Below are positions 12,317 through 64,000 of a stretch of DNA of 64,000 nt, piece after piece. Location: assembly GCA_964374105.1 (NCBI GenBank), contig CAYJXI010000005.1:12440-76439 (forward strand), in the 5' to 3' direction. Within the stretch, counting starts at the first letter, position 1. The number at the start of each line of letters is the position of its first letter. The notes under the pieces were generated by a model. The model saw only the letters and a program-made list of their open reading frames with translations. It was not told the origin of the DNA and ran no database searches. The translations under genes were made by a program, and so were the position numbers. The DNA comes from an uncultured Planctomycetales bacterium. GTDB lineage: Bacteria; Omnitrophota; Gorgyraeia; Zapsychrales; JANLHA01.

Positions 12317-12844
12317 CTAATTTTTTAATAATTCTGTGTGTGTCCTTAAGAAATCTCTCACCTTTTCATTGAAGGGAACAAATACTTGATAGAGCTTTAG
12401 ATCCCCTGGCGCTTGAGGTTTGAGGATGCGGGCGACTCGACTTTTGAATCGAAAGCTTGTGGGGATGAGAGTTTCTTCCTCTTTTTGGAAGCCAATAGTG
12501 ACATTGGTTTCTGTATTAAAAGGAATAAATTTGGGGATACTACAGGAAAGACCGATTAAACTGATATCATTAGTTTGGCAGTTAAAATTTTCTTCAGATG
12601 TTTTAATCTGAACGGGGAATTTAAAATTGAATCGGCGATGACGTCTCTTTTCCGATAAGATGTTATCGGGATTTTTTAAACTCAAACGAAACTGTTTAAA
12701 CCCTTCCCCGTAGCGTTTGATCCAGTCTAAGGTGGCGGTGGCAAATCCAATTTCATATCCTATTTTTTCGCTTTCAATCCATTTGTGTTTACGGATTTCT
12801 AAAATAGCCAGCTCATCTTTGAGAAATGAATACGGATTCTTCAT
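12317..12844 (-). CDS. PilZ-domain protein (putative c-di-GMP receptor) with an uncharacterised N-terminal roughly 65-aa domain
   Basis: 175-aa ORF on the minus strand with a strong RBS (AAGGAGGG) 5-8 nt upstream of the ATG at 12844. It contains the RxxxR motif (RRHRR) followed about 21 residues later by D-I-S-L-I-G, matching the DxSxxG PilZ c-di-GMP-binding signature. The N-terminal segment has a W-x-ESEK-x-G...DW pattern that I do not recognise. Confidence 0.6.
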   Translation of the reverse strand: MKNPYSFLKDELAILEIRKHKWIESEKIGYEIGFATATLDWIKRYGEGFKQFRLSLKNPDNILSEKRRHRRFNFKFPVQIKTSEENFNCQTNDISLIGLSCSIPKFIPFNTETNVTIGFQKEEETLIPTSFRFKSRVARILKPQAPGDLKLYQVFVPFNEKVRDFLRTHTELLKN

Positions 12845-13095
12845 TCAACCCTCCTTCTTTTTAAAGGTTAAACGGATTATATCAGATCGCTTTTTCAAAT
12901 CAAGCGATATTTCAACTTTTTATCGACGGAGAGGATGGGTTTTAAAGAAGTCGAAGGAAATTCATAAAAAGAAATTGGGATATGGCAGACTCACCAGTCT
13001 GATAACCAAATTTGTTATTTATAATAATATATTTTATACTTATTCTGACTCATCTTTTAAATTATCTCAAAATTATTTTAAAGCTCTCATTCAAT

Positions 13096-30446: not shown

Positions 30447-30454
30447 TCCCATTA

Positions 30455-30575
30455 TTGACTCGTTCGACGGCGCTCAAGCCCCGCCCTTCAGAGCGAGGAA
30501 AGAGGCGCCGCTTAAGAGTCAACCCTTAAGCCAAGCCCCGCTCTTTTAGAGCGGGGATAGTCAAAGGGTTGACTC
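30455..30575. repeat. Two adjacent GC-rich palindromic (REP-like) units sharing the core CAAGCCCCGC...CAGAGCG(A/G)GG, flanked by inverted TTGACTC/GAGTCAA
   Basis: Seen directly: TIR TTGACTC (30455-30461) and GAGTCAA (30514-30520). A perfect 9-bp hairpin CCCCGCTCT-TTT-AGAGCGGGG at 30536-30556. A second hairpin GTCAA-AGGG-TTGAC at 30560-30573. Confidence 0.5.
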
Positions 30576-30617
30576 AATTCAAAAAGGAAGATAGACTTTA
30601 AAAGAGAGGACATTCAA

Positions 30618-36159: not shown

Positions 36160-36270
36160 CTTCGGCCTCGCCTCACACCTCGTGCCGAGCCTCGGTGCGA
36201 GGCAGGACGATAGATGCCCAACACCTGCTTGTCGCCTGCCTGACGGCAGTCAGGGCAGAGAGGCGCCAAA
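36160..36270. repeat. GC-rich palindromic intergenic element, a member of a dispersed family with the core CCTGCCTGACGG(C/T)AG
   Basis: GCCTCGC...GCGAGGC stem (36165-36202). CTGCC-TGACGGCAGTCAG-GGCAG hairpin with an internal CTGAC-GGCA-GTCAG motif around 36236-36258. About 65% GC in a roughly 40% GC context. Related cores occur at 39361-39380 and 63594-63615. Confidence 0.5.
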
Positions 36271-36734: not shown

Positions 36735-36787
36735 ACCTCCGAGAGTAATCCTTAAGGTCTGTTGATAAAAACGACAAAAGGAATTAT

Positions 36788-36859
36788 TGCCCGGTGGTGT
36801 AATTGGTAACACACGAGACTTTGGATCTCGGTTTCCTGGTTCGAGCCCAGGCTGGGCAG
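36788..36859 (+). tRNA. tRNA-Gln (anticodon UUG)
   Basis: Hand-folded 72-nt cloverleaf. Acceptor stem TGCCCGG/CTGGGCA with one G-T wobble. D-arm GTGT-AATTGGTA-ACAC. Anticodon arm CGAGA-CTTTGGA-TCTCG gives anticodon TTG. T-arm CCTGG-TTCGAGC-CCAGG. U1:A72 and G73 are tRNA-Gln identity features. CCA is not encoded. Confidence 0.75.
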
Positions 36860-36995
36860 TTTCTGGTAAGTCATCTACGATTCGGAGGCTTTGGTTAAGG
36901 AAATGTAAGCTAAAGAAGTTTCACGACAAATTTAATAGTTATATAACATTTGTTAAAATTATCAAAAAAAATGTCTAAGGAAGTGAAAAGAATTT

Positions 36996-38258
36996 ATGAA
37001 AGGATTGCGAACGATTATCTTGGCGGCAGGGAAAGGAACTCGGATCAAATCTGAGACCCCTAAAGTTTTACATTCGGTTTGTGGGAAGCCTTTGCTCCAA
37101 TATGTCTTGGATGTTGTTTTTGATATCGGTTCTGTGAAAAATTGTGTCGTCTTAGGACATCGAAGTCAACAAGTCAAAGAAGCTCTACGGAATGATATTC
37201 AAGTTGTCATCCAAAAAAGACTTCTAGGCACAGCAGATGCGGTTAAATGCGCTTATAAATATTTTAAGAATTATAAAGGGGATGTTTTGATATTGTGTGG
37301 GGATACACCCCTTTTACATCCAGAAACGCTTAAAAAATTAATCAGAAAACACCGCAAGACCAATGCCGCTTGCACCTTTTTGACAGCGTTTGTTCAAGAA
37401 CCCATTGGTTACGGCCGAGTATTAAGAGATTCCAAGGGGATGGCGGTTGCTATCCGAGAAGAGAATGATGCAACCGAATTTGAAAAGAATATTATCGAGA
37501 TCAATGTGGGGGTTTATTGCTTTAAAAGTAATATTTTATTTCAATTGATTAATGACATTAGAGTCAATAAGAGGAAAAAAGAGTTTTATTTAACCGATAT
37601 CATCGAAATTTTGACTCAACAGGGAGATAAGAACGAAACGTTAGAAGTTGAAGAGGCTAACGAAGGGCTAGGAATTAATACAAGAGAGGATTTGGCCAAA
37701 TCGGAGGCGATTTTACGGCAGCGTATTTTAAAGGAATTCATGTTGAAGGGCGTAACCATCGTTGATCCTCAAACGGCTTTCATTCATGCAGATGTAAAAA
37801 TTGGCCAAGATACAGTTATTTGTCCTTTTACGATTATAGAAAGCAATGTGGTCGTTGGAGCTAATTGTATCATAGGACCTTTTGCTCATTTAAGGCCAGG
37901 AACAAAAATCGGGAATCATGTCCAGGTAGGAAATTTCGCTGAGGTGTCTCGAACTCAGCTTGGAGAGCGTACCTTGATGAAACATTTCTCTTTTTTAGGT
38001 GATGCCCAGGTGGGGTCGCATGTCAATATTGGGGCGGGAGTCGTCACCGCCAATTTTGATGGAAAGGTAAAAAATAAGACGAGGATTCTCGATAACGCCT
38101 TTATCGGTTCAGACTCCATCTTAGTGGCACCCGTGAAGATTGGCAAAAAAGCTATTACTGGGGCAGGATGTGTTGTGACCAAAGGGAAAATCATTCCCGA
38201 TCGCAGTGTGGTAGTGGGGGTACCGGGAAGGATTCTTAAAAGAAAAGTAAAAAGTTGA
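36996..38258 (+). CDS. glmU: Bifunctional UDP-N-acetylglucosamine pyrophosphorylase / glucosamine-1-phosphate N-acetyltransferase
   Basis: 420 aa. N-terminus ILAAGKGTRIKS..PKVLH, with C-terminal left-handed beta-helix hexapeptide repeats. Confidence 0.85.
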   Translation: MKGLRTIILAAGKGTRIKSETPKVLHSVCGKPLLQYVLDVVFDIGSVKNCVVLGHRSQQVKEALRNDIQVVIQKRLLGTADAVKCAYKYFKNYKGDVLILCGDTPLLHPETLKKLIRKHRKTNAACTFLTAFVQEPIGYGRVLRDSKGMAVAIREENDATEFEKNIIEINVGVYCFKSNILFQLINDIRVNKRKKEFYLTDIIEILTQQGDKNETLEVEEANEGLGINTREDLAKSEAILRQRILKEFMLKGVTIVDPQTAFIHADVKIGQDTVICPFTIIESNVVVGANCIIGPFAHLRPGTKIGNHVQVGNFAEVSRTQLGERTLMKHFSFLGDAQVGSHVNIGAGVVTANFDGKVKNKTRILDNAFIGSDSILVAPVKIGKKAITGAGCVVTKGKIIPDRSVVVGVPGRILKRKVKS

Positions 38259-38344
38259 GATTAAACATATTTTCATTTTTTTTAAGATTTTTAAATGAGA
38301 AATGGGAAGAGATCCTCGTTGGTTAATATAAGGATTCTACGATA

Positions 38345-39304
38345 ATGAATGATCTGGCTGTTTTTGCGGGTAATGCCAACAAAGCCTTGGCGGAAAAAAT
38401 CGCTACCAGTTTGAAAGTTTCTCTGACGGATGTTTTGGTCAGCCGGTTCAGCGAGGGGGAAATTCAGGTCCAAATCAAGGAAAATATCCGGGGGAAAGAT
38501 GTTTTCATCATTCAGCCGACCTGTCCGCCACCCAATGAAAATTTAATGGAGTTATTGATCTTGATTGATGCCGCGCGCCGGGCTTCTGCACAAAGGATCA
38601 CCGCGGTTTTGCCTTATTATGGTTATGCAAGACAGGATCGCAAAGATCAACCGCGGGTACCGATTACGGCTAAACTGGTGGCTAATCTCATCGTTGCGGC
38701 CGGGGCCAATCGAGTCTTGGCTCTGGATTTGCATGCCAGTCAGATCCAAGGATTTTTTGATATTCCCGTAGATCACTTATATGCCATTAACACGATGTGT
38801 GATTATATTGTGAAGAAAAAATTAAATAAAAAAGATTTGGTGGTGGTTTCCCCAGACGTTGGGAGTCTTAAAATGGCGCGTGCCTATGCCAAAAAATTAA
38901 AAGCGAGTTTCGCCGTTGTGGATAAAAGACGAGTTAACAGTACTCAAATAGAAGTGTTGAATATCTTAGGTGACGTTAAAGGAAAGACTGCGCTGATGGT
39001 GGATGATATTGTTGCTACGGCAGGTTCTTTGGTGGACGCCGTACAAGGACTGGGGAAGAGCGGCGTCATAAGCGTCTATGCGACTATTACTCATGGGATT
39101 CTTTCGGGGAATGCTCTTCAGAAGATTAATGATTGCCAGATTCTTAAGGAAGTATGTATCTCGGATAGTATTCCTTGCAAAGATGGGAACAATCCGAATT
39201 CTAAGATAAAGATTGTATCGGTGGCTTCCATGCTGGCTGAGGCTATTCAAAGGATTCATAATGAGAAGTCGGTCAGCTGTTTATTTGACGAACCGAGAAC
39301 CTAA
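38345..39304 (+). CDS. prs: Ribose-phosphate pyrophosphokinase (PRPP synthetase)
   Basis: 319 aa. Start LAVFAGNANKALAEKIA, with conserved GY(A/C)RQDRK and DLHA..IQGFFD motifs. Confidence 0.9.
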   Translation: MNDLAVFAGNANKALAEKIATSLKVSLTDVLVSRFSEGEIQVQIKENIRGKDVFIIQPTCPPPNENLMELLILIDAARRASAQRITAVLPYYGYARQDRKDQPRVPITAKLVANLIVAAGANRVLALDLHASQIQGFFDIPVDHLYAINTMCDYIVKKKLNKKDLVVVSPDVGSLKMARAYAKKLKASFAVVDKRRVNSTQIEVLNILGDVKGKTALMVDDIVATAGSLVDAVQGLGKSGVISVYATITHGILSGNALQKINDCQILKEVCISDSIPCKDGNNPNSKIKIVSVASMLAEAIQRIHNEKSVSCLFDEPRT

Positions 39305-39309
39305 TTTTT

Positions 39310-39462
39310 TTATTAGAAACGGTTTCATAATCTCCTTTTGTCATTCCCGAACGTCTTAACCTGCCTGTCGGCAGACAGGTCGGTCCCACCCAGGTGGGAC
39401 TGCTTTCGCAGGAATGACACCGGAGACGGAGGAGTTAGAGGTTATGAAACCACTTCTAATAA
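39310..39462. mobile_element. MITE-like GC-rich palindromic element of about 153 nt with 21-bp terminal inverted repeats
   Basis: Outer TIR TTATTAGAAACGGTTTCATAA (39310-39330) versus TTATGAAACCACTTCTAATAA (39442-39462), 19/21 complementary. Inner inverted repeat GTCATTCC (39343-39350) / GGAATGAC (39411-39418). Internal hairpins CCTGTC-GGCA-GACAGG and GTCCCAC-CCAG-GTGGGAC. The inner part is homologous to the repeats at 36160-36270 and 63589-63679. Confidence 0.55.
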
Positions 39463-39545
39463 GAAGGAGTGATGAAGATAGTAAGCTGTGCTAAAGAGGT
39501 TGACCCACGAAACGAAATTAATGAATTTTGAAGAGGTGAAAGGCA

Positions 39546-40265
39546 ATGGAAGAGATTAAATTAGATGTGCAAATTCGCAATGAAATTGGAACACGACATG
39601 TCAAAAGAGTCCGTCGTCAAGAGTTTGTTCCGGGGGTGATCTACGGTCGAAGCCAAAAGTCTACCCCCATTAAAGTGGATCGAAAAATTTTTGAACGTAT
39701 TCGACGTCAGCAGCAGACAGGAAATATCATTTTTCACCTGAATGTAAAGGAAGGCGATAAGTTATTGAAAGATTATTCGGCCATTGTCAAGGAAGAGCAA
39801 CATGATCCGGTAACGGATCGTATTCTGCATATTGATTTTAATAGCATTTCTTTGACGGAAAAGATTGAAGTGAAAGTTGCGGTGGTGGCCAAGGGAGAAC
39901 CTATAGGGGTTAAGGTGGATGGAGGGTCGCTGGAACATGTCCTTTGGGAATTGGATGTCATCTGTCTTCCGACACAGATCCCGCAAAGTATCGAAGTGGA
40001 TGTTAGCCAGCTTAAGATTGCGGACAGCATTCATGTGAAAGATATTCAGTTACCAGAAGGAGTTACTACCAAGCATGATCCCGAAGCTATTATTCTTGCC
40101 GTGGCGGCACCCATGAAAGAGGAAGTTGTGGCCCCAACGGCTGAGCCAGTGGAATTAGAGGTTATTAAAGAAAAGAAAGAGCTTCCTGCTGAGAAGAAAC
40201 CCATTGAAACAGAAGAGAGAAAGGAAGAAAAGAAGGAAGAGAAAAAAGAGAAAAAGGAGAAATAA
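39546..40265 (+). CDS. rplY: 50S ribosomal protein L25 / general stress protein Ctc, with a K/E-rich C-terminal extension
   Basis: 239 aa. The L25 N-domain and beta-barrel domain are recognisable (RGKG..RRLR..G.VPGVIYG). Ends with EKKEEKKEKKEK. Confidence 0.8.
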   Translation: MEEIKLDVQIRNEIGTRHVKRVRRQEFVPGVIYGRSQKSTPIKVDRKIFERIRRQQQTGNIIFHLNVKEGDKLLKDYSAIVKEEQHDPVTDRILHIDFNSISLTEKIEVKVAVVAKGEPIGVKVDGGSLEHVLWELDVICLPTQIPQSIEVDVSQLKIADSIHVKDIQLPEGVTTKHDPEAIILAVAAPMKEEVVAPTAEPVELEVIKEKKELPAEKKPIETEERKEEKKEEKKEKKEK

Positions 40266-40347
40266 GGAAAATTTCCTCGTGCGCCAATTGAGAGTGGGGC
40301 GGAAGGTTTAAGGGAAATTCGCTGATGAAACTTATCTAAAGAGGTCT

Positions 40348-40959
40348 TTGAAAGAGGAGATTTTAGGTTTGCGAGAAATTATGGTTATTGTAGGGTTAGG
40401 AAATCCAGGGAAGGAATATGAATATTCAAGACATAATCTGGGTTTCCAGGTGGTTAGGCATTTAGCCAATGAATTTCATTTAAAATTCGGGAAAGAATCG
40501 TATTGTGAAGGACTGATCGCTAAAGGGGAAATTTCGCAAAGAGATTGTATGTTATTGATGCCTGCGACGTTTATGAATCATTCGGGTCTTGCGGTTAAAC
40601 AAATTGTCAACAGAAACAGCATAGACCTAGATAAGATTTTAGTCGTTTGTGACGATTTCAATTTAGATTTTGGCTTCTTAAGATTACGCAGGCGTGGAAG
40701 TGATGGAGGACACAACGGATTAAGTTCGATCATTGATCATTTGGGATCACAGAATTTTGCTCGTTTAAGATTGGGGATTGGTCAAAAGACCAAGGCCGAT
40801 TTTAATGACAAGGTTACATTTGTGCTGGGGGTATTTGATCAAAAGGAAAAACAGAAACTCAATTCTTTTGTTAAGTTGGCGTCGGATTGTTGCTCAGCAT
40901 GGTTAATTCAAGATTTCGATCAAGTGATAGCTCAGTTCAATAATCGGCAGGTGGAATGA
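40348..40959 (+). CDS. pth: Peptidyl-tRNA hydrolase
   Basis: Contains IVGLGNPG..Y..RHN.GF and the conserved D/H residues. The ORF-track start is TTG 40348. The true start may be TTG 40368 (GAGGAG RBS 8 nt upstream) or ATG 40381. Confidence 0.8.
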   Translation: MKEEILGLREIMVIVGLGNPGKEYEYSRHNLGFQVVRHLANEFHLKFGKESYCEGLIAKGEISQRDCMLLMPATFMNHSGLAVKQIVNRNSIDLDKILVVCDDFNLDFGFLRLRRRGSDGGHNGLSSIIDHLGSQNFARLRLGIGQKTKADFNDKVTFVLGVFDQKEKQKLNSFVKLASDCCSAWLIQDFDQVIAQFNNRQVE

Positions 40960-41015
40960 ACTTTAAGGAGTTGACTTTAAGGGTTGCGTTTTATCTGTTA
41001 ATGAAGGAGTAAAAC

Positions 41016-41303
41016 ATGAACAAATATGAGATGGTGGTCATTGTGGATGCGACCACGCCCCAAGGGGAAAAGGAGACTATTGTGAAAGAAATGACCGATG
41101 CCATCACAAAGTGTGAAGGGAAGGTAATCAACAGTCAGGTGTGGTTGGAAAAACACAAATTTACTTTTCGCATGAGAAGAAGTACCGAAGGAACCTATTA
41201 TTTGATCAATTTTGAGATGTTGCGTTCCACCCTGGCAAAATTGCGACAAATTGTGAAGTTAAATGAGAGGATTTTGCGGTCGTTGATTATTAGAATTGAT
41301 TAA
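41016..41303 (+). CDS. rpsF: 30S ribosomal protein S6
   Basis: 95 aa. MNKYEMVVIVDATTPQGEKETIVKEMTDAI...EGKVINSQVWLEKHKFTFRM parallels canonical S6. Confidence 0.85.
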   Translation: MNKYEMVVIVDATTPQGEKETIVKEMTDAITKCEGKVINSQVWLEKHKFTFRMRRSTEGTYYLINFEMLRSTLAKLRQIVKLNERILRSLIIRID

Positions 41304-41418
41304 TTTTCCTTTTGTGGTAGCTTATATATGTATTTATATTCGTATTTGATATTCGTAAATTCCATTGATTATTGGGGAAGAAAGTTTAGTTAAAACAAAT
41401 ATTGTGAGGGAGGGTAAA

Positions 41419-41877
41419 ATGGCGAATCTGAACAAGGTATTTTTAATCGGCAATTTAACTCGAGATCCTGAATTAAGGTATACCCCAGCTGGGGTGGCAG
41501 TGGCCAATTTGGGTTTGGCGGTCAATCGCAGATTCCGTGATAAATCCGGAGAACTGAAAGAAGATGTCTGTTTTCTTACCGTAACGGTCTGGGATAAACA
41601 GGCCGAGGCTTGCTGCCAATATTTACAAAAGGGAAGTCCCATTTTTGTGGAAGGGGTATTACAATCACGTTCTTGGGAAACCAGTGATGGTCAAAAAAGA
41701 AGCACCATTGACGTCCGTGCCGAACGTGTTCAATTTCTAGGAAAGTTTTCCGCAGATAAACAGACGGAAGAGGTATTTCAGAAGAATACCGATCAGGTCA
41801 TGGATCATGCCCCCGCATCCAGTCCGCAATTGTCAGCAGATACGGTGAGTCCTGCGGATGTGGCTTGGGATGAATAA
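41419..41877 (+). CDS. ssb: Single-stranded DNA-binding protein
   Basis: MANLNKVFLIGNLTRDPELRYTPAGVAVANLGLAVNRRF... OB-fold with an acidic C-terminal tip (DVAWDE). GAGGGAGGG RBS directly upstream of ATG 41419; the ORF track extends upstream spuriously to 41365. Confidence 0.9.
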   Translation: MANLNKVFLIGNLTRDPELRYTPAGVAVANLGLAVNRRFRDKSGELKEDVCFLTVTVWDKQAEACCQYLQKGSPIFVEGVLQSRSWETSDGQKRSTIDVRAERVQFLGKFSADKQTEEVFQKNTDQVMDHAPASSPQLSADTVSPADVAWDE

Positions 41878-41890
41878 TAATCTAGCTCTT

Positions 41891-41975
41891 AAGCTTTCAG
41901 TTATCAGCTTTCAGAAAAAGGATGAAGGAGTTGTTTGTCAACTGAAAACTGAGGGCTGAGAGCTGATAACTTTAG
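41891..41975 (+). promoter_or_regulatory. 16-nt near-perfect inverted repeat, a potential long stem-loop, in the ssb-rpsR intergenic leader
   Basis: AAGCTTTCAGTTATCAGCTTTCAG (41891-41914) versus CTGAGGGCTGAGAGCTGATAACTTTAG (41949-41975). The cores AGTTATCAGCTTTCAG and CTGAGAGCTGATAACT are complementary at 15/16 positions. Possible attenuator or r-protein autoregulatory structure; function not established. Confidence 0.3.
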
Positions 41976-41991
41976 TTTTAAGGAGGGACAA

Positions 41992-42267
41992 TTGTTTCAA
42001 GAACATAGACGAAGAACAGACATAGAGGGTCGCCCTCAAGCGCGCGGGATAAAACCGACTAGAATTATGAAATATCTTATCCCTAAGGATGCGAAGATAG
42101 ATTATAAGAATTTACCTTTAATACAAAAATTCATAACTGATCGTGGGAAGGTTGTTCCACGACGAGTTACAGGGGTTTCTTCAAAAGAACAAAGGGAATT
42201 AGCCAGGGCTCTTAAAAGAGCGCAATTCTTAGCCTTGGTACCAGTGGGGAGTACAAAAAGACGTTGA
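41992..42267 (+). CDS. rpsR: 30S ribosomal protein S18
   Basis: TTG start preceded by an AAGGAGGG RBS. Basic N-terminus (HRRRTD) and conserved core [33 protein letters not shown]. Confidence 0.85.
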
Positions 42268-42414
42268 TCTTTCTTTGGGTCTAAAATTCCCTCCCAAAAT
42301 CCTGTTTTTAACAATTGAGAATTGTTTTGTTAATTCCTAAGAGTATTTTTCTCCGATTTGAGATAAGAAGAGAGGAAATTCTAAAAGTTATTTTTGTCGG
42401 GAGGAGTAAAAATT

Positions 42415-42858
42415 ATGGAAATTATCCTAGGTCAAGATATCCCCAAATTAGGGAAAGTCGGAGATGTGATTAAGGTGAAAGATGGTTATGCCCGCAATTT
42501 TCTTATTCCTAAGAAAATGGCGTACGTGGCTACTCCTGATAATTTAAGGAGAATCGAACGGGAGAGGGTCCAAAAAGTTGCCCAAAACGAAAAGGTTAAA
42601 AAAGAAGCCGAGGCCTTGGCCGAAAAAATAAGCAAGGTCTCTTGTACACTCACTGTGGAAGTCAATGATCTAGAAAAACTTTATGGATCAGTTTCGGAAA
42701 ATGATATTGCCAAAGCTCTCGAGATTGAGGGATTCTCGATCGATAAAAAATCCATTATCCTCGAAAAGCCAATTGAAGAATTAGGCATCTTTGAGGTTAA
42801 GGTTAAAGTTCACCCAGAAGTCATGGCTAAAATTCGAGTATGGGTAGCGAAGAAATAA
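42415..42858 (+). CDS. rplI: 50S ribosomal protein L9
   Basis: MEIILGQDIPKLGKVGDVIKVKDGYARNFLIPKKMA... GGGAGGAG RBS upstream of ATG 42415. Confidence 0.9.
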   Translation: MEIILGQDIPKLGKVGDVIKVKDGYARNFLIPKKMAYVATPDNLRRIERERVQKVAQNEKVKKEAEALAEKISKVSCTLTVEVNDLEKLYGSVSENDIAKALEIEGFSIDKKSIILEKPIEELGIFEVKVKVHPEVMAKIRVWVAKK

Positions 42859-44171
42859 AAATTCCCCCCCAGAATTTAGAGGCAGAACAGTGTGTTCTGG
42901 GGGCCATGCTCATTGATGAAGAGGCCATTGCTTTGGCTCTGGAAATTCTTGATGAAGATTGGTTTTATGAGGAAACCCACCGCAAGATCTATTCTGCCAT
43001 TCTGGATGTTTATAATAACAGAAAAAATGTGGATTTGATCACTCTGACGGATAGACTCAAGAGTGAAGGACTCATGGAAACGGTTGGGGGGGGGGCCTAT
43101 TTATCTCATTTGATTGACATGGTCCCCACTTCTGCCAATGCGGAACATTACGCTGGTATTGTCAAAGAAAAGGGGATTTTAAGAAAGCTTATCAAAAATG
43201 CTACCCAAATTGTGAGTCATTGTTTTGAATCAAAAGGTCATGTTCAGGAAGTCGTTGATAACGCCGAACGACTGATCTTTGAAGTAGCCGATTTAAAACA
43301 TCAGCAAAGCTCCGCACATATCAAAGACCTTGTCAAGAGCAATATTGCCCTCATCGATAATCTTTATCAGCGAAAAGAGCATGTTACGGGATTGGCCACG
43401 GGATTTACGGAATTTGATCGTTTGACTTCTGGATTGCAGGCCTCAGATCTTGTTATTTTGGCGGGACGTCCTTCAATGGGTAAAAGTGCTCTAGCCATCT
43501 CCATGGTTCAACACATTGGGACCGAGTTAAAGAGGGCGATCGCTTTTTTTAGTTTAGAGATGTCGAAAGAACAGCTGGTACAAAGAATGCTGTGTTCCCA
43601 GGCCCGGGTCGATGCCCATAAAGTGAGATCAGGTTATTTATCCCCCTCGGATTGGCCTAAATTAACCTCGGCCGCGGGGAAATTGTCATCCGCTTCCATT
43701 TTTATTGATGATACCCCCGCCATTTCGGCTTTAGAGTTAAGGGCCAAGGCAAGACGTTTGAAAATGCATCATGATATACAATTGTTAGTTTTGGATTATT
43801 TACAAATGATGCAAGGCCACACCCGGAGCGATAGCCGCCAACAAGAAATTTCCGATATCTCTCGAGCCATCAAGGCCCTTGCTCGCGAATTAAAGATTCC
43901 TATTATTGCGTTAAGCCAGTTATCTCGAGCAGTGGAAAGTCGTCAGAATCATCGGCCACAGCTGTCCGACCTACGTGAGTCAGGGGCGATTGAACAGGAT
44001 GCGGATGTGGTTGTCCTTTTAATGAGAGAGGAATATTACAATCCAACGGAGGATAATAAAGGAATTGCCGAAGCCATTATAGCTAAACAACGAAATGGAC
44101 CGGTTGGCACCGTTAAACTCACATTCATTAAAGAATATATGCGATTTGAAAATCTTGCACAACCCGATTGA
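42840..44171 (+). CDS. dnaB: Replicative DNA helicase DnaB
   Basis: 443 aa. N-terminal PPQNLEAEQCVLGAML. Walker A GRPSMGKSALAI. Characteristic motifs, including the SGAIEQDADVV motif. Overlaps the rplI 3' end, completing the rpsF-ssb-rpsR-rplI-dnaB arrangement. Confidence 0.9.
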   Translation: MGSEEIKIPPQNLEAEQCVLGAMLIDEEAIALALEILDEDWFYEETHRKIYSAILDVYNNRKNVDLITLTDRLKSEGLMETVGGGAYLSHLIDMVPTSANAEHYAGIVKEKGILRKLIKNATQIVSHCFESKGHVQEVVDNAERLIFEVADLKHQQSSAHIKDLVKSNIALIDNLYQRKEHVTGLATGFTEFDRLTSGLQASDLVILAGRPSMGKSALAISMVQHIGTELKRAIAFFSLEMSKEQLVQRMLCSQARVDAHKVRSGYLSPSDWPKLTSAAGKLSSASIFIDDTPAISALELRAKARRLKMHHDIQLLVLDYLQMMQGHTRSDSRQQEISDISRAIKALARELKIPIIALSQLSRAVESRQNHRPQLSDLRESGAIEQDADVVVLLMREEYYNPTEDNKGIAEAIIAKQRNGPVGTVKLTFIKEYMRFENLAQPD

Positions 44172-44202
44172 CAGATCCAATGCGAACTTTTATAATCACC
44201 TC

Positions 44203-46527
44203 ATGTTGTTTATAAAAATCATATTGTGTTTCATATGTCAAATCGTTTTTTTGGTATCGACAGTTTTCGCTCAACCCTCTGAAACTGCCCCCTCTTCTTT
44301 CCAAACAGAGAAGAAACTTATTAAGGTTGTAGAAGTTAAGGGAAATAAAACAATTGGTTTATCTGTCATTTTATCCAAAATCAAAACCCGCGTGGGTCAA
44401 GAATGTTTACAGAGTATTATTAGTGATGATTTAAAACGTTTGTATAACACTGGTTATTTCTCGGATGTGAATGTGGATCGACAGGATTATGAGGAAGGTG
44501 TGAAGGTTATCTTTTATGTGACCGAGAAACCACTCGTTGATAAAATCACTTTTTCCAAAACTCGCTATTACAGTGCAAAAGCTCTACTCAAAAAAATCAA
44601 TACCAAATCTGGGAGGTTTCTTGATAATAAAACGTTGAATGATGATGTTCGTAAGATTGAAGAAATTTATGTTAAGAAAGGGTTGACCTTTGCTTCTGTT
44701 AAAGTGGAAACGGAAAAAGATGAACTCACTAATAAAGTCAATGTTCATTTTGTCATTAAAGAAGGGGGACAGATTCGGATCAAGAGAATTAAAATAGAAG
44801 GGAATCAGGCTTTCAAGAATAAAAGGATTCTTAGGATCATTAAGACACGATCCCGTTGGCTTTTCAATTCAGGATTTTTGAAAGAAGAAGTCCTGCAAGA
44901 GGATATGGAGCGCATTAAATCCTTCTATGAGAAAGAAGGTTTTATCGATGCGGCTGCAAATTTTGAATATGAAAATATCAGCGATGTCTATCGTAATGTT
45001 GTCATCCATATCAATGAAGGAAAGAGATATTATGTCGAATCTATTTCTGTCATAGGCAATAAGATACTGGAAAAGGAAAAAATTATTGAGGTTATGAAAG
45101 AGGTCAAAACGGGCGGTATTTTTAGTCGAGAAAAATTAACTGTAGATATATCTAACATTCGTTCTTTATATTTCGATAAAGGTTATATTTTTGCTAATGT
45201 CCGGGAGTCAACCTCACTGAATCCTATGACAGGGAAGGTAGAGATTAAACTTGATATTGAAGAGGGGAGTTTGGCTTACATCAATAAGATTAAGATTCAG
45301 GGGAATGAACGCACTCGGGATATTGTTATCCGTCGAGAATTGCGGTTATACCCCGGGGATCAATTTGATGGTGTAAAACTTAAAAGAACAAAGGAACGAT
45401 TGAATAACTTGGGTTATTTTGAAGATGTCAGTTACGACATAGAAGATACCGACATCCCTGACCGTAAGGATTTAATTGTTCAAGTCAAAGAAGCCAAGAC
45501 CGGTTCCTTAAGCTTTGGGGGAGGGTACAGCACCGTTGATCAGTTCGTGGGTTTTATTGAAATCGAACAGAAAAATTTTGATTTTGCCAACTGGCCGACT
45601 TTTACCGGAGGAGGACAACACTTGGAATTAAGAACTGAGTCCGGTTCAACGCGTAGCAATACCCGTTTGAGTTTCACTGAGCCTTGGCTTTTTGATTACC
45701 CGGTTTCCGGTGGGTTTGATGCCTACATCACTGAGCGAGAAAGAGAGCGAGATGTGGGGTATTCCTTTGATGAAAAAAGGGTGGGGGGTGACGTCCGACT
45801 TGGAAAAGACTTTACGGAACACGTCTCTGGGGGTATCGCCTATCAGATGGAAAATATTGAGATCGATAATTTTGATACCGGTGTTTCGGCAGATTTATTG
45901 GCGGAACAGGGAGAAAATACCATCAGCAGTGTGGGGTTATCCTTGAGCTTCGATTCCAGGGATAGTGTATTTAACCCAACGAGTGGGATATTCTTAAGTC
46001 AGACAACGGATATTGCAGGAGGAATCTTGGGTGGAGATAAGGATTTTGTTCGCTGGACAGGCCGATCCAGTTATTTCCTTCCTTTGAAACTCGATTCTGT
46101 ATTGGAATTTCGGTTGCGAACTGGAATTGTGGATGCCTATGGTGATACAGGAAAGGTTCCCATTTTCGAACGTTTCTATTTGGGTGGCGCTAGGACCATC
46201 CGCGGATACAATGAACGTCAAGTCGGCCCTTTGGATCCTGTGACGGAGGATCCTATCGGTGGGGAGAGTATGCTGGTAGGAAATGTTGAATACTTGATTC
46301 CATTAATTGATTTTGTTAAAATGTCCGCGTTTTTTGATATTGGTAATGTCTGGTCAAAACTCAAAAGTTATGGATCGGGAGGATTTAAGGCAGGGGCGGG
46401 TCTGGGTTTGCGGGTCAAGACCCCGATTGGACCGATCAGTTTGGATTATGGTTATCCCTTAAATGATGAACCTGGGGAAGAAGAACGGTCAGGAAAATTT
46501 TATTTTAGCGTAAGCCGGGGATTCTAG
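44203..46527 (+). CDS. bamA: Outer membrane protein assembly factor BamA
   Basis: Signal peptide MLFIKIILCFICQIVFLVSTVFA from ATG 44203; the ORF track extends upstream to 44095. Repeated POTRA-like modules. C-terminal beta-barrel ending in an aromatic residue (SRGF). Confidence 0.85.
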   Translation: MLFIKIILCFICQIVFLVSTVFAQPSETAPSSFQTEKKLIKVVEVKGNKTIGLSVILSKIKTRVGQECLQSIISDDLKRLYNTGYFSDVNVDRQDYEEGVKVIFYVTEKPLVDKITFSKTRYYSAKALLKKINTKSGRFLDNKTLNDDVRKIEEIYVKKGLTFASVKVETEKDELTNKVNVHFVIKEGGQIRIKRIKIEGNQAFKNKRILRIIKTRSRWLFNSGFLKEEVLQEDMERIKSFYEKEGFIDAAANFEYENISDVYRNVVIHINEGKRYYVESISVIGNKILEKEKIIEVMKEVKTGGIFSREKLTVDISNIRSLYFDKGYIFANVRESTSLNPMTGKVEIKLDIEEGSLAYINKIKIQGNERTRDIVIRRELRLYPGDQFDGVKLKRTKERLNNLGYFEDVSYDIEDTDIPDRKDLIVQVKEAKTGSLSFGGGYSTVDQFVGFIEIEQKNFDFANWPTFTGGGQHLELRTESGSTRSNTRLSFTEPWLFDYPVSGGFDAYITERERERDVGYSFDEKRVGGDVRLGKDFTEHVSGGIAYQMENIEIDNFDTGVSADLLAEQGENTISSVGLSLSFDSRDSVFNPTSGIFLSQTTDIAGGILGGDKDFVRWTGRSSYFLPLKLDSVLEFRLRTGIVDAYGDTGKVPIFERFYLGGARTIRGYNERQVGPLDPVTEDPIGGESMLVGNVEYLIPLIDFVKMSAFFDIGNVWSKLKSYGSGGFKAGAGLGLRVKTPIGPISLDYGYPLNDEPGEEERSGKFYFSVSRGF

Positions 46528-46586
46528 TTTTAAACAAAGTAAAAATTTAACAATCAAAAAGTCAAGAAAAATAAAGGAGGACTATT

Positions 46587-47117
46587 GTGAAAAATCTAAG
46601 ATTAGTGATTTTACTTGTAGGGAGTGTTTTCGTTTTTAATTCATTAGCGCTAGCCCAAACCTCAAATTTAAAAAAGGTTGGATTTTTAGACTTAAGCAAG
46701 ATTTTTGACAGTTATGAAAAAACCAAAGAGTATGATGCAATGCTGGAAGGGAAACACCAAGAATATGTTAAGCAACACAATCAGAAGATGGAAGAAATCA
46801 ATGAGAAGACAGGGAAATTGGCCCTTCTCAAAGATGATGAGAAAAAAAAGATTCAGGATGAAATCGATCAGAAGAAACGGGAACTGGCCGAGTTTGATCA
46901 GGCGGCAAGGACGGATTTGACCAAACAGCGCGACGAAAAAATCAGAGAAATTTTATTGGAAATAGAAAAGATCGTTAGTGATTTTGCCAAGAAAGAGGGT
47001 TATGATATGATATTAAATGATCGTGTTCTTATTTTTGGCAATGAGCAAATGGATGTGTCTGATCAGATATTGAAAGTCTTAAACGAAGATTATAATAAAA
47101 AAGAAGAGAAGAAATAG
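46587..47117 (+). CDS. skp: Periplasmic chaperone Skp (OmpH family)
   Basis: GTG start 6 nt after an AAGGAGG RBS. Signal peptide LVILLVGSVFVFNSLALA. Coiled-coil K/E-rich body typical of OmpH/Skp. Canonical position between bamA and lpxD. Confidence 0.7.
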   Translation: MKNLRLVILLVGSVFVFNSLALAQTSNLKKVGFLDLSKIFDSYEKTKEYDAMLEGKHQEYVKQHNQKMEEINEKTGKLALLKDDEKKKIQDEIDQKKRELAEFDQAARTDLTKQRDEKIREILLEIEKIVSDFAKKEGYDMILNDRVLIFGNEQMDVSDQILKVLNEDYNKKEEKK

Positions 47118-47127
47118 TTCTTAAACA

Positions 47128-48189
47128 ATGATGCCTAAGACTCTCGGAGAGATTGCCGAACTGATTGAAGGGGAATTGATAGGAAATTCAACCCTCGTCA
47201 TTACAGGATTATCGGGAATTAAAGAGGCCCAGCAGGGTGATTTGACCTTTGTTGCTAATTCCAAATATTTCCCATTGGTTGCCAAGACCAAGGCCTCTGC
47301 GATTATTACGCCGAGGGAAATGGATTTAAAAGGATCGACTTCCATCATACGAACCGAGAATCCCTCGCTTGCCTTTGCTAAAGTGGTTTCCTTGATTTTC
47401 GGTCATCCCTCGCCCTTCTCTCAAGGAATTCACAAGAGCGCCATCATTGCCGAAGATGCGGAAATTGGCCCTGGTGTCAACATTGGCCCCTCTACTGTTG
47501 TGGAAGAGAAAGTCAAAATTGGAGCCAATACCACGATCGGCAGTGGTTGTTTCATCGGTCATTTGACCACCATTGGTCGTGACTGCCTCATTTATCCTAA
47601 CATCACTATTCGAGAGAGAATTGCCATTGGAAACCGAGTTATTATTCACAGCGGGACTGTTATTGGATCGGATGGTTTTGGTTTTGTGAATGTCAAGGGG
47701 ATTCATCAAAAAATCCCTCAGATCGGGACGGTGGAAATTCAAGATAATGTAGAAATCGGTGCTAATGTCACGATCGATCGAGCTCGTTTTGACAAAACCA
47801 TCATTGGTCAAGGAACTAAGATCGATAATCTGGTGCAGATTGCTCACAATGTGAGAATCGGAAAGAATTGTATCATTGTTTCCCAAGTTGGTATCTCGGG
47901 AAGTACTGTCCTTGAAGATAACGTGACCTTAGCTGGTCAGGTGGGTTTAACCGGACACATCACAATTGGTGAAGGAGCCGTTGTGGCTTCCCAGTCGGGA
48001 GTGTCCAATTCTGTCCCTCCTTATACAACTGTTTGGGGGTTCCCTGCCAAACCTCATATGCACGCAAAGCGGGTGAATGCCTGTGTGCAGCGATTACCTC
48101 ATTATGTCAAAGTTATTCAAGATTTAAAGAAGCGGATCGAAGGACTTGAGGCAAAACTGAAAGAAGAAAAACCCAAAAGCAAATCTTAA
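47128..48189 (+). CDS. lpxD: UDP-3-O-(3-hydroxyacyl)glucosamine N-acyltransferase
   Basis: 353 aa. N-terminal LpxD domain plus a long left-handed beta-helix with hexapeptide repeats (IGxNVxIGxxxxI...). Confidence 0.85.
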   Translation: MMPKTLGEIAELIEGELIGNSTLVITGLSGIKEAQQGDLTFVANSKYFPLVAKTKASAIITPREMDLKGSTSIIRTENPSLAFAKVVSLIFGHPSPFSQGIHKSAIIAEDAEIGPGVNIGPSTVVEEKVKIGANTTIGSGCFIGHLTTIGRDCLIYPNITIRERIAIGNRVIIHSGTVIGSDGFGFVNVKGIHQKIPQIGTVEIQDNVEIGANVTIDRARFDKTIIGQGTKIDNLVQIAHNVRIGKNCIIVSQVGISGSTVLEDNVTLAGQVGLTGHITIGEGAVVASQSGVSNSVPPYTTVWGFPAKPHMHAKRVNACVQRLPHYVKVIQDLKKRIEGLEAKLKEEKPKSKS

Positions 48190-48227
48190 GGAAATTTTTA
48201 AACTAAAATACACCCCGGGAACTCCCC

Positions 48228-48265
48228 ACACACCCGGTGTTTGTCTTAACAAACACCGGGTGTGT
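48228..48265 (+). terminator. Perfect 17-bp stem-loop (ACACACCCGGTGTTTGT-CTTA-ACAAACACCGGGTGTGT) between lpxD and lpxC/fabZ
   Basis: Seen directly. It lies 39 nt after the lpxD stop and is followed by GTTAATTTGA, only weakly U-rich. It could be an intrinsic terminator, an attenuator or an RNA-stability element. Confidence 0.4.
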
Positions 48266-48313
48266 GTTAATTTGACCTAATTAAAATTTGATAAGAAAAT
48301 CAGCATAAAAACA

Positions 48314-49642
48314 GTGGAATTACAAAAGACTATTAAACAGGAATTGTCAATTAAAGGGGCGGGACTGCATACGGGCTGTCGGGTTACGGTTCGATTGAAA
48401 CCCTCCCCAGAAAATAGCGGGATCAGCTTTATTAGAGTCGATGGCCGCCAGCAATCTGTTATCAAAGCAAGTTACGAAAGTATTCTCATCAACTCAAAAA
48501 TCCCGCGTTGTACTTCGATCGGCAATGGGAAGGTTGTGATTCATACGGTTGAACATCTGATGAGTGTTTTGTATGGATTGGGAATTGATAATGCGATGAT
48601 AGAAATAGATGGGGAGGAATTGCCGGGCCTCGATGGGAGCGGATTGGAATTCTTAAGGGCTATTAAAAAAGTAGGGATTATTGAACAAAGAGCCCCTCGG
48701 CAATACATTGAAATCAAGGAACCCTTGGTTGTCCATGAAGGGGATTCTTCCATTATCATTGTCCCTGATCAGGAGTTAAAAATTTCCTACACCTTGGCCT
48801 ATCAGCATTCTTATTTAAATTCGCAATTTTTTACTGCCACGGTTAATAGTATTACTTATGAACAAGACATTGCCCCCAGTAGAACCTTCTGCCTCGAAGA
48901 AGAAGCACAGTTCCTCCTCTCCCAAGGCCTTGGGAAAGGGGCCAATTATGAAAATACCTTGGTGATTGGCAAGAACGGGGTGATCCAAAATCAACTGCGA
49001 TTCAAGGATGAGTTTGCCAGACATAAGGTTCTGGATTTGATTGGGGATATCTATTTGTTAGGAAAACCGATCCGCGGCTATATCTTTGCTATCAAGAGTG
49101 GTCATTATCTCAACATAGAATTGTTGAAAAAGATATGGCTTCATGATCAGCCTAGTCAGAAAAAGAGTTTTATCCCGGAATACGCCTTGGGGGACAAAAA
49201 AGAATTGGATATCCACCAAATTATGAAAATCTTACCGCACCGTTTCCCATTTTTATTGGTCGATCGGGTGATTGAATTAGAAAAAGCCAAGAGAATTGTC
49301 GGTATTAAAAATGTTACGATCAATGATCCATTTTTTGCAGGACATTTCCCTTCTCGTTCGATCATGCCGGGGGTTTTGATTGTGGAAGCCATCGCTCAGA
49401 CCGCCGGGATTCTGGTGCTTACTGACGAAAATCACCAAGGGAAGGTGGCCTTATTTTTAGGCGCTAACAATATCAAATTTCGGAAGTTGGTCGGACCTGG
49501 AGAACAATTGATCATGACAGTGGAAATGACGAGGGATCGTTCAAAGACGGCTATCCTTTATGGTCAAGCCAAAGTCAATGGAGAAGTTGTGGCAGAGGTT
49601 GATCTGATTTTTTCATTTACAAATGCTTCTTTTCTGGATTGA
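48314..49642 (+). CDS. lpxC/fabZ: Bifunctional UDP-3-O-acyl-N-acetylglucosamine deacetylase / 3-hydroxyacyl-ACP dehydratase (LpxC-FabZ fusion)
   Basis: GTG start. N-terminal roughly 280 aa are LpxC-like ([10 protein letters not shown].....P). C-terminal roughly 150 aa are a FabZ hot-dog domain ([13 protein letters not shown]....G.K....[16 protein letters not shown]). Confidence 0.85.
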
Positions 49643-49711
49643 GTCTGATAAAAAATTAGTGTATAATAAAAACCAACTTTTGAAATTATCCTATCAACTT
49701 TTTAAAAACGT

Positions 49712-50497
49712 ATGGAAAGTGTGCAATTGCATAAGACAGCGGTGATTCATCCCTCCGCCAAATTGGCTTGCGGTGTTGCGGTTGGTCCTTATTCGGTCAT
49801 TGGACCTTATGTCACCATTGCTGAGAATGTGAAGATAGGCAGTCATTGCATTATCGAAGGCCAGGCCGCCATCGGAAAAAATTGTCAGATTTTTACGGGC
49901 GCCATTATTGGCAGTGCTCCACAGGATAAAAAATACAATGGCGAAGAGGATGTTTCTTTTACGATCGGGGAGAACAATATCATCCGGGAATACGTGACGA
50001 TGAATACGGGAACCTCGGAAGGAGGAGGGAAAACCATTGTTGGGAATAATAATCTTTTTATGGCTTATTCTCATGTGGCGCACGACTGTATCATTGGCAA
50101 CAACTGTGTCCTGGCCAATGCGGGAACTTTAGCCGGGCATGTCACCCTGGAAGATAATGCGGTGGTGGGGGGATTGAGTGCGGTTCATCAATTTGTCCGC
50201 CTCGGACGTCTTTCCATTGTAGGAGGCTGTTCTAAAGTGGTGCAGGATATTCCTCCTTTTTCCATGTGTGATGGTCATCCGGCAAAGGTTTATGATCTGA
50301 ATTATACAGGGCTAAAACGCGCTAAAATTTCACTAAAGACAATTAATTTATTAAAACAAGCCTTCAAGATTCTTTTTCACAGTGGCCTCTCCAAAACCCA
50401 TGCCATTGAGAAGATTGAAAAAGAAATCGAACCTTCTCCTGAGGTTGAGCACCTCATCTTTTTTGCTAAGACAACAAAACGGGGACTCTGTAGTTAA
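49712..50497 (+). CDS. lpxA: Acyl-ACP--UDP-N-acetylglucosamine O-acyltransferase
   Basis: 261 aa. N-terminal hexapeptide-repeat beta-helix (IHPSAKLACGVAVGPYSVIGPYVTI...) and a C-terminal LpxA helical domain. Confidence 0.85.
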   Translation: MESVQLHKTAVIHPSAKLACGVAVGPYSVIGPYVTIAENVKIGSHCIIEGQAAIGKNCQIFTGAIIGSAPQDKKYNGEEDVSFTIGENNIIREYVTMNTGTSEGGGKTIVGNNNLFMAYSHVAHDCIIGNNCVLANAGTLAGHVTLEDNAVVGGLSAVHQFVRLGRLSIVGGCSKVVQDIPPFSMCDGHPAKVYDLNYTGLKRAKISLKTINLLKQAFKILFHSGLSKTHAIEKIEKEIEPSPEVEHLIFFAKTTKRGLCS

Positions 50498-52218: not shown

Positions 52219-52243
52219 GCAGGGGTTTTAACAGAAATTTCCG

Positions 52244-52507
52244 ATGGCCAAATTCCGTTGGGCCAAAATTCCGATGCCAACACGACTGGACCCAAATGAA
52301 TTTAAGTTATGTCGTGTGACCCAAGAATCCCAAGGGGATGTGGTTTTGGACCCATTTGTCGGCAGTGGAACAACATGCGTTGCCGCCTTGAAAACCAAAA
52401 GACATTATATCGGCTATGATACCAACAAAGAATACTGTAAGTTAGCGGAGAGAAGAATTGAGAGTTCTCTTCAAGAGCAAATTTCTTTGTTTGAGTCCAA
52501 AAAATGA
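52244..52507 (+). pseudogene. Truncated remnant (C-terminal about 50 aa) of a beta-class N6-adenine/N4-cytosine DNA methyltransferase
   Basis: The 87-aa ORF contains [41 protein letters not shown], which is the AdoMet-binding motif I region (DPFxGSGTT) that lies C-terminal in beta-class MTases. The upstream catalytic (D/N/S)PPY region is absent. The length is about a third of a functional enzyme. Confidence 0.6.
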
Positions 52508-52555
52508 ATCATGGAAAGATTTAGCTTCTTCAATGCAGGGGCTATTTAGGATAAG

Positions 52556-52588
52556 AAAGGACAGGTTAAAACCTGTCCTTTCTTATAC
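52556..52588 (+). terminator. Rho-independent terminator-like hairpin after the methyltransferase remnant
   Basis: GGACAGG-TTAAAA-CCTGTCC stem-loop (52559-52578) followed by TTTCTTAT. A second perfect palindrome ATTGTGGCC-GGGC-GGCCACAAT lies about 40 nt downstream. Confidence 0.5.
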
Positions 52589-52719
52589 CCCAAGAAGCGG
52601 CGGTGGGGAAATGATGCGTCAAATTGTGGCCGGGCGGCCACAATTGGGGAAAAGGGTAAAAAAAGTAGTGTCGGTCCCGACTTTACCGACTTTAAAATAA
52701 ACAATAAGATTGAAAGATT

Positions 52720-55203: not shown

Positions 55204-55276
55204 CACAAGTTAGAGGTCAGAAGTCAAAGGTCAACAGTCAAATTAAAATTTTATTAACAAATTGTCTTTTGATTTC

Positions 55277-55331
55277 AGCCCTCCCTGGCCCGCCAGTTGC
55301 CAAGGCCAGGGAGGGCTGACTTCTGACTTTT
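55277..55331 (+). terminator. Perfect 14-bp GC-rich stem-loop after lysS, followed by CTGACTTTT; embedded in a larger imperfect palindrome
   Basis: AGCCCTCCCTGGCC (55277-55290), loop CGCCAGTTGCCAA, GGCCAGGGAGGGCT (55304-55317). Flanked by inverted GTCAGAAGTCA / TGACTTCTGAC copies. The downstream ACTTGAGGACTTT motif is also found at 63631-63647. Confidence 0.5.
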
Positions 55332-55356
55332 CACCTGTGACTTGAGGACTTTAGAT

Positions 55357-63559: not shown

Positions 63560-63588
63560 AATAGTAGGGCGGTCCAAATTATTCAATT

Positions 63589-63773
63589 GTCATTCCTGCC
63601 TGACGGTAGGCAGGCGAAAGCAGTCCTTCGATTACACTTGAGGACTTTGCCCTTAAGCGAAGTCGAAGGGCAGGAATCCAGAAGGGGAATTTGGACCCCC
63701 GATTATCACGCCAAAGGCGTGATCCGCCTAGGGCGGAAAACATACCTGCCTGCCGGCGGGGGTGACAGAATCC
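63589..63773. repeat. Cluster of GC-rich palindromic elements including an inverted copy of the 39310-39462 element core
   Basis: GTCATTCCTGCC (63589-63600) ... GGGCAGGAATCC (63668-63679) TIR-like ends. Internal CCTGCC-TGACGGTA-GGCAGG. CGAAAGCAG, matching the reverse complement of CTGCTTTCG in the 39310 element. Then ATCACGCC-AAA-GGCGTGAT (63705-63723), CCGCC-TAG-GGCGG (63724-63736) and CCTGCCTGCCGGCGGG (63745-63760). The ORF-track 66-aa ORF here is probably spurious. Confidence 0.5.
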
Positions 63774-64000
63774 ATTTCTCGAATTAGCATCATCATCATC
63801 GATAAGTTATTACTATTTATTTTTTCCATTAATGTATGGTCACAACCTTAACCAGATCTCTATCTCCCATATTACGATTTATAGGCTATATAGGTCAGCT
63901 ATCGATTCTTCTTTGGCAAACCTTATGCTGGACATTTATCCCACCTTTTAAAAAGGATCGATTCCTTTTCCAGGCGCAAAGGGTAGGATGGGGGAGTTTT

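Follow-up and report, generated by a model that had tools for sequence, protein, structure and literature searches.

The 153-nt palindrome that lies between the ribose-phosphate pyrophosphokinase gene prs and the gene of ribosomal protein L25 (ctc) on a contig of an uncultured Omnitrophota bacterium is real. Among the readings that we weighed, we favour by a modest degree of confidence that it is a mosaic palindromic repeat of the BIME/NIME type, probably a fossil, whose 81-nt core derives from NTS/SRM hairpins (GTCATTCC...GGAAT(C)). This palindrome is called element A hereafter. Its core contains, without mismatch, the 5′ segment (20-23 nt) of a hairpin that is present in many phyla, and the boundaries of the core, TGTCATTCC ... 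GGAATGACA, as well as its approximate span, are those of canonical inverted pairs of this hairpin. It is interrupted by a GTCC..GGAC hairpin, a trait common to the core of element A, to a relative in the same stretch of DNA (copy B) and to 23 metagenome contigs, and it holds a further module, M2, that recurs both in the window (the whole stretch of 64,000 nucleotides that was analysed) and in other phyla. A puzzling intergenic palindrome of an uncultured phylum would thereby join a family of repeats for which no enzyme partner had been described until 2025; Omnitrophota is a phylum for which we met no report of the NTS/SRM family in the literature.

Element A begins immediately downstream of prs, 3 nt past its stop codon (Table 1). 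The initial annotation had described its architecture correctly: the outer termini are complementary at 19 of 21 positions, the inner inverted repeat formed by TGTCATTCC (39339-39347) and GGAATGACA (39411-39419) at 9 of 9, and GC hairpins are found at 39359-39384 and 39383-39400, where the GGCA and the CCAG tetraloop readings are both valid. The outer inverted repeat moreover grows to 28 nt, of which 24 are complementary. The whole region folds at -74.3 kcal/mol when treated as RNA and at -39.7 kcal/mol when treated as DNA, with z = -7.6 in both cases and no shuffle as stable, and the + and - strands of element A are equally stable. Over 13.4 kb (36831-50265), the comparison with same-species Logan contigs (L001-L003, from ERR3478686 and ERR4904391) gives one SNP, C to A at 39320, which falls in the left outer arm at a pre-existing mismatch of the stem, element A being otherwise unchanged.

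Table 1. Coordinates of element A, of its relatives in the window and of the adjoining genes
Feature	Position	Strand	Description
Left outer arm	39307..39334	.	28 nt, 86%; includes the 21-nt terminus 39310-39330 (TTATTAGAAACGGTTTCATAA) first annotated as a ‘TIR’
Right outer arm	39438..39465	.	Includes the 21-nt terminus 39442-39462 (TTATGAAACCACTTCTAATAA) first annotated as a ‘TIR’
81-nt core TGTCATTCC ... GGAATGACA	39339..39419	-	Degenerate SRM/NTS-like composite hairpin member
23-mer TGTCATTCCTGCGAAAGCAGTCC	39397..39419	-	First 20 nt are the 5′ part of the many-phyla hairpin
Hairpin GTCCCACC-CA-GGTGGGAC	39383..39400	.	‘GTCC...GGAC’ hairpin of the subfamily; splits the SRM right arm
M2 hairpin module CCTGCCTGTCGGCAGACAGG	39360..39379	+	Three copies in the window; present in other phyla too
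prs (ribose-phosphate pyrophosphokinase), upstream	38345..39304	+	Pfam Pribosyltran_N, Pribosyl_synth
ctc / ribosomal protein L25, downstream	39546..40265	+	Pfam
Copy B	63588..63681	+	TGTCATTCCTGC (16-nt insert forming M2) GAAAGCAG (50-nt insert) GAATCCAG
Copy B with its own outer repeat	63571..63697	.	GGTCCAAATT (63571-63580) / AATTTGGACC (63688-63697)
Third M2 module CCTGCCTGACGGCAGTCAGG	36235..36254	+	ispE-spoVG spacer

The evidence for the origin of the core comes from its minus strand. There, positions 39400-39419 read TGTCATTCCTGCGAAAGCAG and are identical, at 20 of 20 positions, to the first 20 nt of the hairpin TGTCATTCCTGC-GAAA-GCAGGAATCCAG. A scan of one genome per GTDB species for TGTCATTCCTGC-N0-30-GAAAGCAG recovered at least 120 genome stretches, which together represent more than 15 phyla, and the matches listed include Flavobacteriia, Rickettsia, Nitrospirota, Planctomycetota, Omnitrophota (L015 and L072), Ignavibacteria, Desulfobacterota, Patescibacteria and others. 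Counts of the canonical forms are based on the 122 distinct hits among the matches listed. Most of these (104/122) are the simple hairpin TGTCATTCCTGC-GAAA-GCAGGAATC(C/T)(A/G)G, and 37 of the 122 have an inverted partner hairpin, ATTCC-NNN-loop-NNN-GGAATGAC, that ends in GGAATGACA. The inner stem triplets are of eight types and are complementary in 34 of the 37 inverted pairs. Between the TGTCATTCC-type ends, the listed hits span 51-136 nt with a median of 76 nt, to be compared with the 81 nt of the window core.

This hairpin is one compensatory pair apart from the NTS of Neisseria, CCCGC/GCGGG being changed to CCTGC/GCAGG (T:A variant). According to the article that describes it, the NTS is CGTCATTCCCGCGMAVGCGGGAATCYRG and includes dRS3, and SRMs are degenerate relatives of the NTS, hairpin repeats that are bound and cut by SsnA (PMC11893778, Nat Commun 2025). 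SsnA is a single-domain GIY-YIG protein (cd10448) that cuts NTS only as ss DNA and on one strand only; its gene is often found in the order NTS-ssnA-NTS, and in Neisseria the binding of SsnA depends on the C that follows the palindrome more than on any other base (PMC11893778). The hosts of SRM and Ssn named in this article are Neisseria, Wolbachia, Rickettsia and others, its survey having covered the RefSeq reference and representative genomes with the pattern HGTCWYN(0-2)YYVSBRHN(0-5)WNVSBRGN(0-2)RNCYNB (PMC11893778). In the window this pattern has no match, in neither element A nor copy B. The canonical hairpin escapes it as well, because the pattern fits the C-variant and not the T-variant TGTCATTCCTGCGAAAGCAGGAATCCAG. 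Published SRM counts are thus probably too low, since the T-variant missed by the pattern is sequence-identical in more than 15 phyla. The same minus-strand positions of element A (39400-39419) do present the SRM head GTC(A/T)(C/T) followed by the left arm, and both the 12-mer and the 8-mer of this SRM head and left arm are present in copy B. No contiguous 20-50-nt consensus hairpin with the C after the palindrome is intact in the window.

Neighbouring genes provide a link between the many-phyla hairpin and this class of nucleases. GIY-YIG ORFs of about 95 aa (PF01541) are encoded within about 100 nt of the hairpin at loci L064, L093, L048 and L108, and at L064 hairpins border the gene on both sides. 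A GIY-YIG motif scan together with tblastn gave four or five such neighbours; NCBIfam returned nothing specific for them and their assignment to Ssn (cd10448) is putative. All-against-all clustering of the ORFs from 120 loci disclosed no recurrent neighbour family, and neither tblastn nor Pfam found a GIY-YIG or Ssn gene in the 64-kb window. As for viral genomes, a search of 2.9 million IMG/VR contigs finds the 24-mer TGTCATTCCTGCGAAAGCAGGAAT in only 4 (L155-L158), with two copies in one 6.5-kb contig, so that phages are not an obvious vector. In the Omnitrophota locus L015, a GTAG-headed REP-like palindrome, GTAGGGCACGGCATGCCGTGCCCCTAC (7353-7384), adjoins a canonical T-variant SRM hairpin, and several hairpin families thus stand side by side in this phylum. 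A generic scan for ‘GTCWY + hairpin’ was abandoned as unspecific (22 hits against about 13 in shuffles).

In both element A and copy B, a GTCC...GGAC hairpin breaks the sequence just past GAAAGCAG. The full 23-mer TGTCATTCCTGCGAAAGCAGTCC is matched at 23 of 23 positions in 23 metagenome stretches, every one of which has a GTCC..GGAC hairpin at the same site as in A and B; among the metagenome copies this hairpin exists in 12 sequence variants, with pairing kept in all. Since the same interruption recurs in these 23 stretches, they form with A and B a recognisable subfamily. Interruption at one fixed site by a second hairpin is, more generally, frequent among members of the family, some lineages of which also have outer inverted repeats.

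Copy B corresponds to the inner-core relative that had been pointed out from the beginning, and it has TGTCATTCCTGC and GCGAAAGCAGTCC in common with the minus strand of element A. It reads TGTCATTCCTGC (16 nt) GAAAGCAGTCC...GGCAGGAATCCAG. The inserts add 66 nt in total, the 50-nt one being composed of the GTCC..GGAC hairpin and of a hairpin CCCTTAAGCGAAGTCGAAGGG, and the NTS-like 3′ flank GGAATCCAG is kept. Its outer repeat is unlike that of element A. Within the hairpin CCCTTAAGCGAAGTCGAAGGG, the motif AGCGAAGTCGAAGG (63656-63669) recurs in a distant Omnitrophota relative, at 9979-9992 and 4451-4464 of L009, one of these two sites being the prs-ctc spacer of L009. A same-species Logan contig stops at 63635, within copy B; this assembly break is weak evidence that hints at repeated sequence.

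The other core copy proposed initially, in the ispE-spoVG spacer, is likewise present, matching 39360-39379 at 18 of 20 positions, and represents the M2 module by itself. M2 (CCTGCCTGNCGGCAGNCAGG) has three copies in the window, and 1.1 Mb of loci from other phyla yield six more. In A and in B it occupies opposite sides of the GAAA loop, in opposite relative orientation; because of this placement, A and B compare as mosaics and not as a fixed unit. What is visible in the 64-kb window amounts to two SRM-derived copies and three M2 modules, all intergenic, and a k-mer census of the window found no high-copy words. In a WWE3 genome (Patescibacteria; L052, 5546-5640), an SRM-like hairpin GTCATCCTGAA...TTCAGGATC holds a CCTGACTGCCGGCAGGCAGG module (M2) in its loop, a nesting that matches that of copy B in an unrelated phylum.

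How element A departs from the canonical pair bears on its present state. The right arm of the left hairpin and the left arm of the right hairpin are missing, the right arm being replaced after GCAG, and both ends are GGAATG, not GGAATC. Element A has thus lost its two local right arms together with the C that should follow the palindrome, and is probably a fossil. According to the mosaic reading that we favour, hairpin units would have spread in single stranded form with the aid of an Ssn-type nuclease, which we infer to be encoded elsewhere in the genome or to have been so formerly; the modules would nest into or beside one another, and what survives of element A would be just a single long hairpin, to which a locus-specific outer stem of 28 bp adds length.

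A bolder extension can be envisaged, which we regard as improbable for the moment, in which Ssn-type hairpins serve as landing pads. Small hairpins would nest at fixed sites, between TGC and GAAA or right after GAAAGCAG, and form multi-branched, cloverleaf-like ss DNA palindromes that propagate as composites with lineage-specific outer stems, A and B being two products of this process in Omnitrophota. Growth might possibly proceed by Ssn cleavage of ss DNA followed by repair or template switching. If true, it would constitute an undescribed growth mode for bacterial repeats.

The outer stem deserves separate attention. The initial annotation considered the element as MITE-like, with 21-bp terminal inverted repeats, and as a small non-autonomous mobile or REP/BIME-like one. 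It is indeed repeat-derived, non-coding and intergenic, with a REP/BIME-like mosaic structure and relatives in the window; the 21-bp termini, on the other hand, do not define the family, whose signature is the inner repeat with the adjoining 20-23 nt. We examined under this light whether element A could be a true MITE, a unit of 153-159 nt with 21-28-bp terminal inverted repeats moved in trans by a DDE (or similar) transposase and having the SRM-like core as cargo, and judge this unlikely. The outer repeat is highly significant, as none of 3000 shuffles of both flanks matches 19/21 or 24/28, but with as many as four mismatches allowed neither arm has a second copy in the window, and none was found in about 1.2 Mb of fetched loci. 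The outer repeat of copy B is unrelated. In other genomes, outer repeats are found in 8 of 80 SRM-bounded elements, against 0.8% of mismatched-flank controls, and a MITE-like architecture has precedents since such repeats are conserved across loci in two cases: in Rickettsia, SRM hairpins lie inside multi-copy elements with a conserved 25-nt outer repeat (L065, L019), and an element of Thermodesulfobacteriota type, TTAAGGCTACCTCTAAAAA...TTATTAGAGGTTGCCTTAA, is found at no fewer than 6 distinct loci. The former may, we presume, be the published Rickettsia palindromic elements (RPEs).

The target-site duplications expected of such a unit are not visible either, the flanks AACCTAATT and GGAGTGATG being devoid of a common direct repeat; a TA duplication is possible and would stay hidden, since the palindrome itself includes TA. 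No transposase was found among the window's annotated genes. Finally, the modules are arranged differently in A and B, and this difference in the arrangement of M2 argues against copying as one fixed unit. Two apparent relatives of the outer arm were discarded: an AT-rich match of 17 nt in Rickettsia, 1 kb away from the nearest hairpin, was judged to be due to chance, and the likeness to the Thermodesulfobacteriota outer repeat (common TTAGAGGTT) is not significant when the post-hoc choice is allowed for.

Alternatively, the outer stem, and perhaps the nested hairpins, could have been made in place round an old SRM copy by template switching, without any transposition of the 153-nt unit; an inverted duplication during replication would then extend the existing hairpin. 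That the outer repeats are unique, and that those of A and B differ, agrees with such an origin, as does the 16-nt insert of copy B: the CCTGCC arm was already there, and the insert brings its reverse complement and so creates the M2 hairpin. The hairpin is also partially duplicated in L048 and L055. M2, however, occurs alone at unrelated sites and in unrelated phyla with a nearly fixed sequence, to which a propagating module fits better than repeated de novo origin. We hold an origin by template switching to be very improbable, and retain the mosaic of propagated modules.

At the locus itself, element A is probably transcribed with prs, as it starts 3 nt past the stop codon. It would then be at most a passive, very stable stem-loop at the 3′ end of the prs transcript, which might block exonucleases or partially insulate prs from ctc, by analogy with REP/BIME; REPs can stabilise upstream mRNA. 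The role of terminator, also put forward initially, does not agree with the sequence: the promoter/terminator scan gave nothing at the element, no promoter and no terminator-like site, and the stem is followed by GAAGGAGTGATG, not by a U-tract. The practical consequence for the locus is small, and we most likely face a repeat in decay, present as a stable stem-loop behind prs.

Conversely, one may suppose an RNA selected in place, as a 3′ stabiliser or attenuator of prs or as a leader of ctc (L25), in which case the likeness to repeats would come from re-used common hairpin sequences. Such a locus-specific RNA appears quite unlikely to us. The hairpin is extremely stable and very close to the prs stop codon, and the sole same-species SNP is at an already unpaired position; yet both strands fold equally, as is expected of a DNA palindrome rather than of a strand-specific RNA, and over 23 nt the core is identical to repeats that are dispersed in many phyla. 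Rfam gives no family: at the gathering threshold the sole hit in the window is tRNA-Gln, and with permissive settings (E up to 10) the best E-value in the spacer is 0.89, at chance level and far below gathering scores. ARAGORN found no tRNA or tmRNA likeness in the branched core. The absence of a U-tract and of a terminator-like site also speaks against an RNA selected in place.

The L25 homologues identify the host as an uncultured Candidatus Omnitrophota bacterium, with a nearest relative at only 70% L25 identity, and the prs-ctc gene order is kept in two relatives (70% and 65% L25 identity). Their spacers, of 197 and 105 nt, are not homologous to element A, and they conserve neither its sequence nor its architecture, contrary to what an RNA selected in place would predict. 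The spacer of the nearest relative (L006/L007/L008, 9804-10000) nevertheless also contains a long compound hairpin that folds at -63 kcal/mol. This palindrome, of about 150 nt, is unrelated and has AT-rich 40-bp stems and a GC hairpin; its presence is a point in favour of the locus-specific RNA. Either the prs-ctc spacer is a repeated host of palindromic elements or a big hairpin is favoured there.

Hairpin-rich spacers 3′ of genes are a general trait of the host genome. Of the 22 window spacers of at least 80 nt, 7 have a fold z of -3.9 or below, which is why we call such downstream spacers the rule. Strong folding (z -8.4 to -3.9) is seen at 55204-55341, 48190-48313, 63560-63800, 30447-30617, 41878-41991 and 52219-52719. 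Each of these spacers has stems of its own: at 55204 a long stem GTCAGAAGTCA...TGACTTCTGAC surrounds a GC hairpin, and at 30510 a long stem is formed by GAGTCAACCCTT...AAGGGTTGACTC.

Some other features of the window are worth recording. Same-species Logan contigs end at 36831, 52612 and 63635, and two independent assemblies break at the first of these positions, inside the tRNA-Gln gene (36787-36860), which could reflect strain variation or an integrated element. Two giant ORFs occupy the + strand, at 1-12255 (at least 4084 aa, cut by the window start) and 13012-27921 (4969 aa), with a small PilZ-domain gene between them on the minus strand (12317-12844). An 87-aa ORF (52244-52507) displays the motif DPFVGSGTT, as N4/N6 DNA methyltransferases typically do in their C-terminal part, but lacks the upstream catalytic part; judging from this motif, it is probably a gene remnant. 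A suspected frameshift in dnaB was ruled out, the 443-aa ORF at 42840-44171 being intact.

Among known systems, REP/BIME sequences with their RAYT proteins (IS200/IS605-like Y1; E. coli, Pseudomonas) resemble element A as short extragenic palindromes arranged in mosaics 3′ of genes. They also resemble the SRM/Ssn system, in which ss DNA hairpins are recognised by a small dedicated nuclease, with repeats on either side of its gene. The enzyme associated with the hairpin in other genomes is, in contrast, a GIY-YIG protein and not a HUH Y1 transposase. The suggestion that the element could be recognised by a RAYT does not find support, as its head is GTCAT and not GTAG or GTGG, and its signature is that of NTS/SRM rather than of a GTAG-headed REP. 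Pfam annotation of the genes at 36.8-50.3 kb and at 52.6-63.6 kb, and of 10 extra ORFs, found no Y1_Tnp domain; the giant ORFs do not belong to this set.

Structured-core MITEs, such as the Correia/NEMIS elements of Neisseria, the enterobacterial ERIC and the Rickettsia palindromic elements, share with element A a size of 120-190 nt, terminal inverted repeats, a fold into one long hairpin and an intergenic location. They differ in that here the interior is conserved and not the ends, with no second copy having the same termini in the window or the fetched loci and no evident target-site duplication. Intrinsic terminators and 3′ stabiliser stem-loops have in common with element A a very stable stem-loop right after a stop codon, between co-directional genes; element A has no U-tract, its stem is far longer and more branched, and its sequence is shared with dispersed repeats.

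The comparison with NTS/SRM is the closest. Of one hairpin element A holds only 20-23 nt at the 5′ end, and of the other only the terminal GGAATGACA, with neither a contiguous hairpin nor the C after the palindrome; the loop of copy B is expanded to 66 nt, and no ssn gene resides in the 64-kb window. In spite of these differences, the oriented motif, GTCATTCC-stem-loop-stem-GGAATC(C/T)(A/G)G, is the same as in NTS/SRM. The matched hairpin is intergenic and multi-copy in many phyla, its units are assembled in mosaic clusters as are the NIMEs of Neisseria, and in four fetched loci it is adjoined by small GIY-YIG genes.
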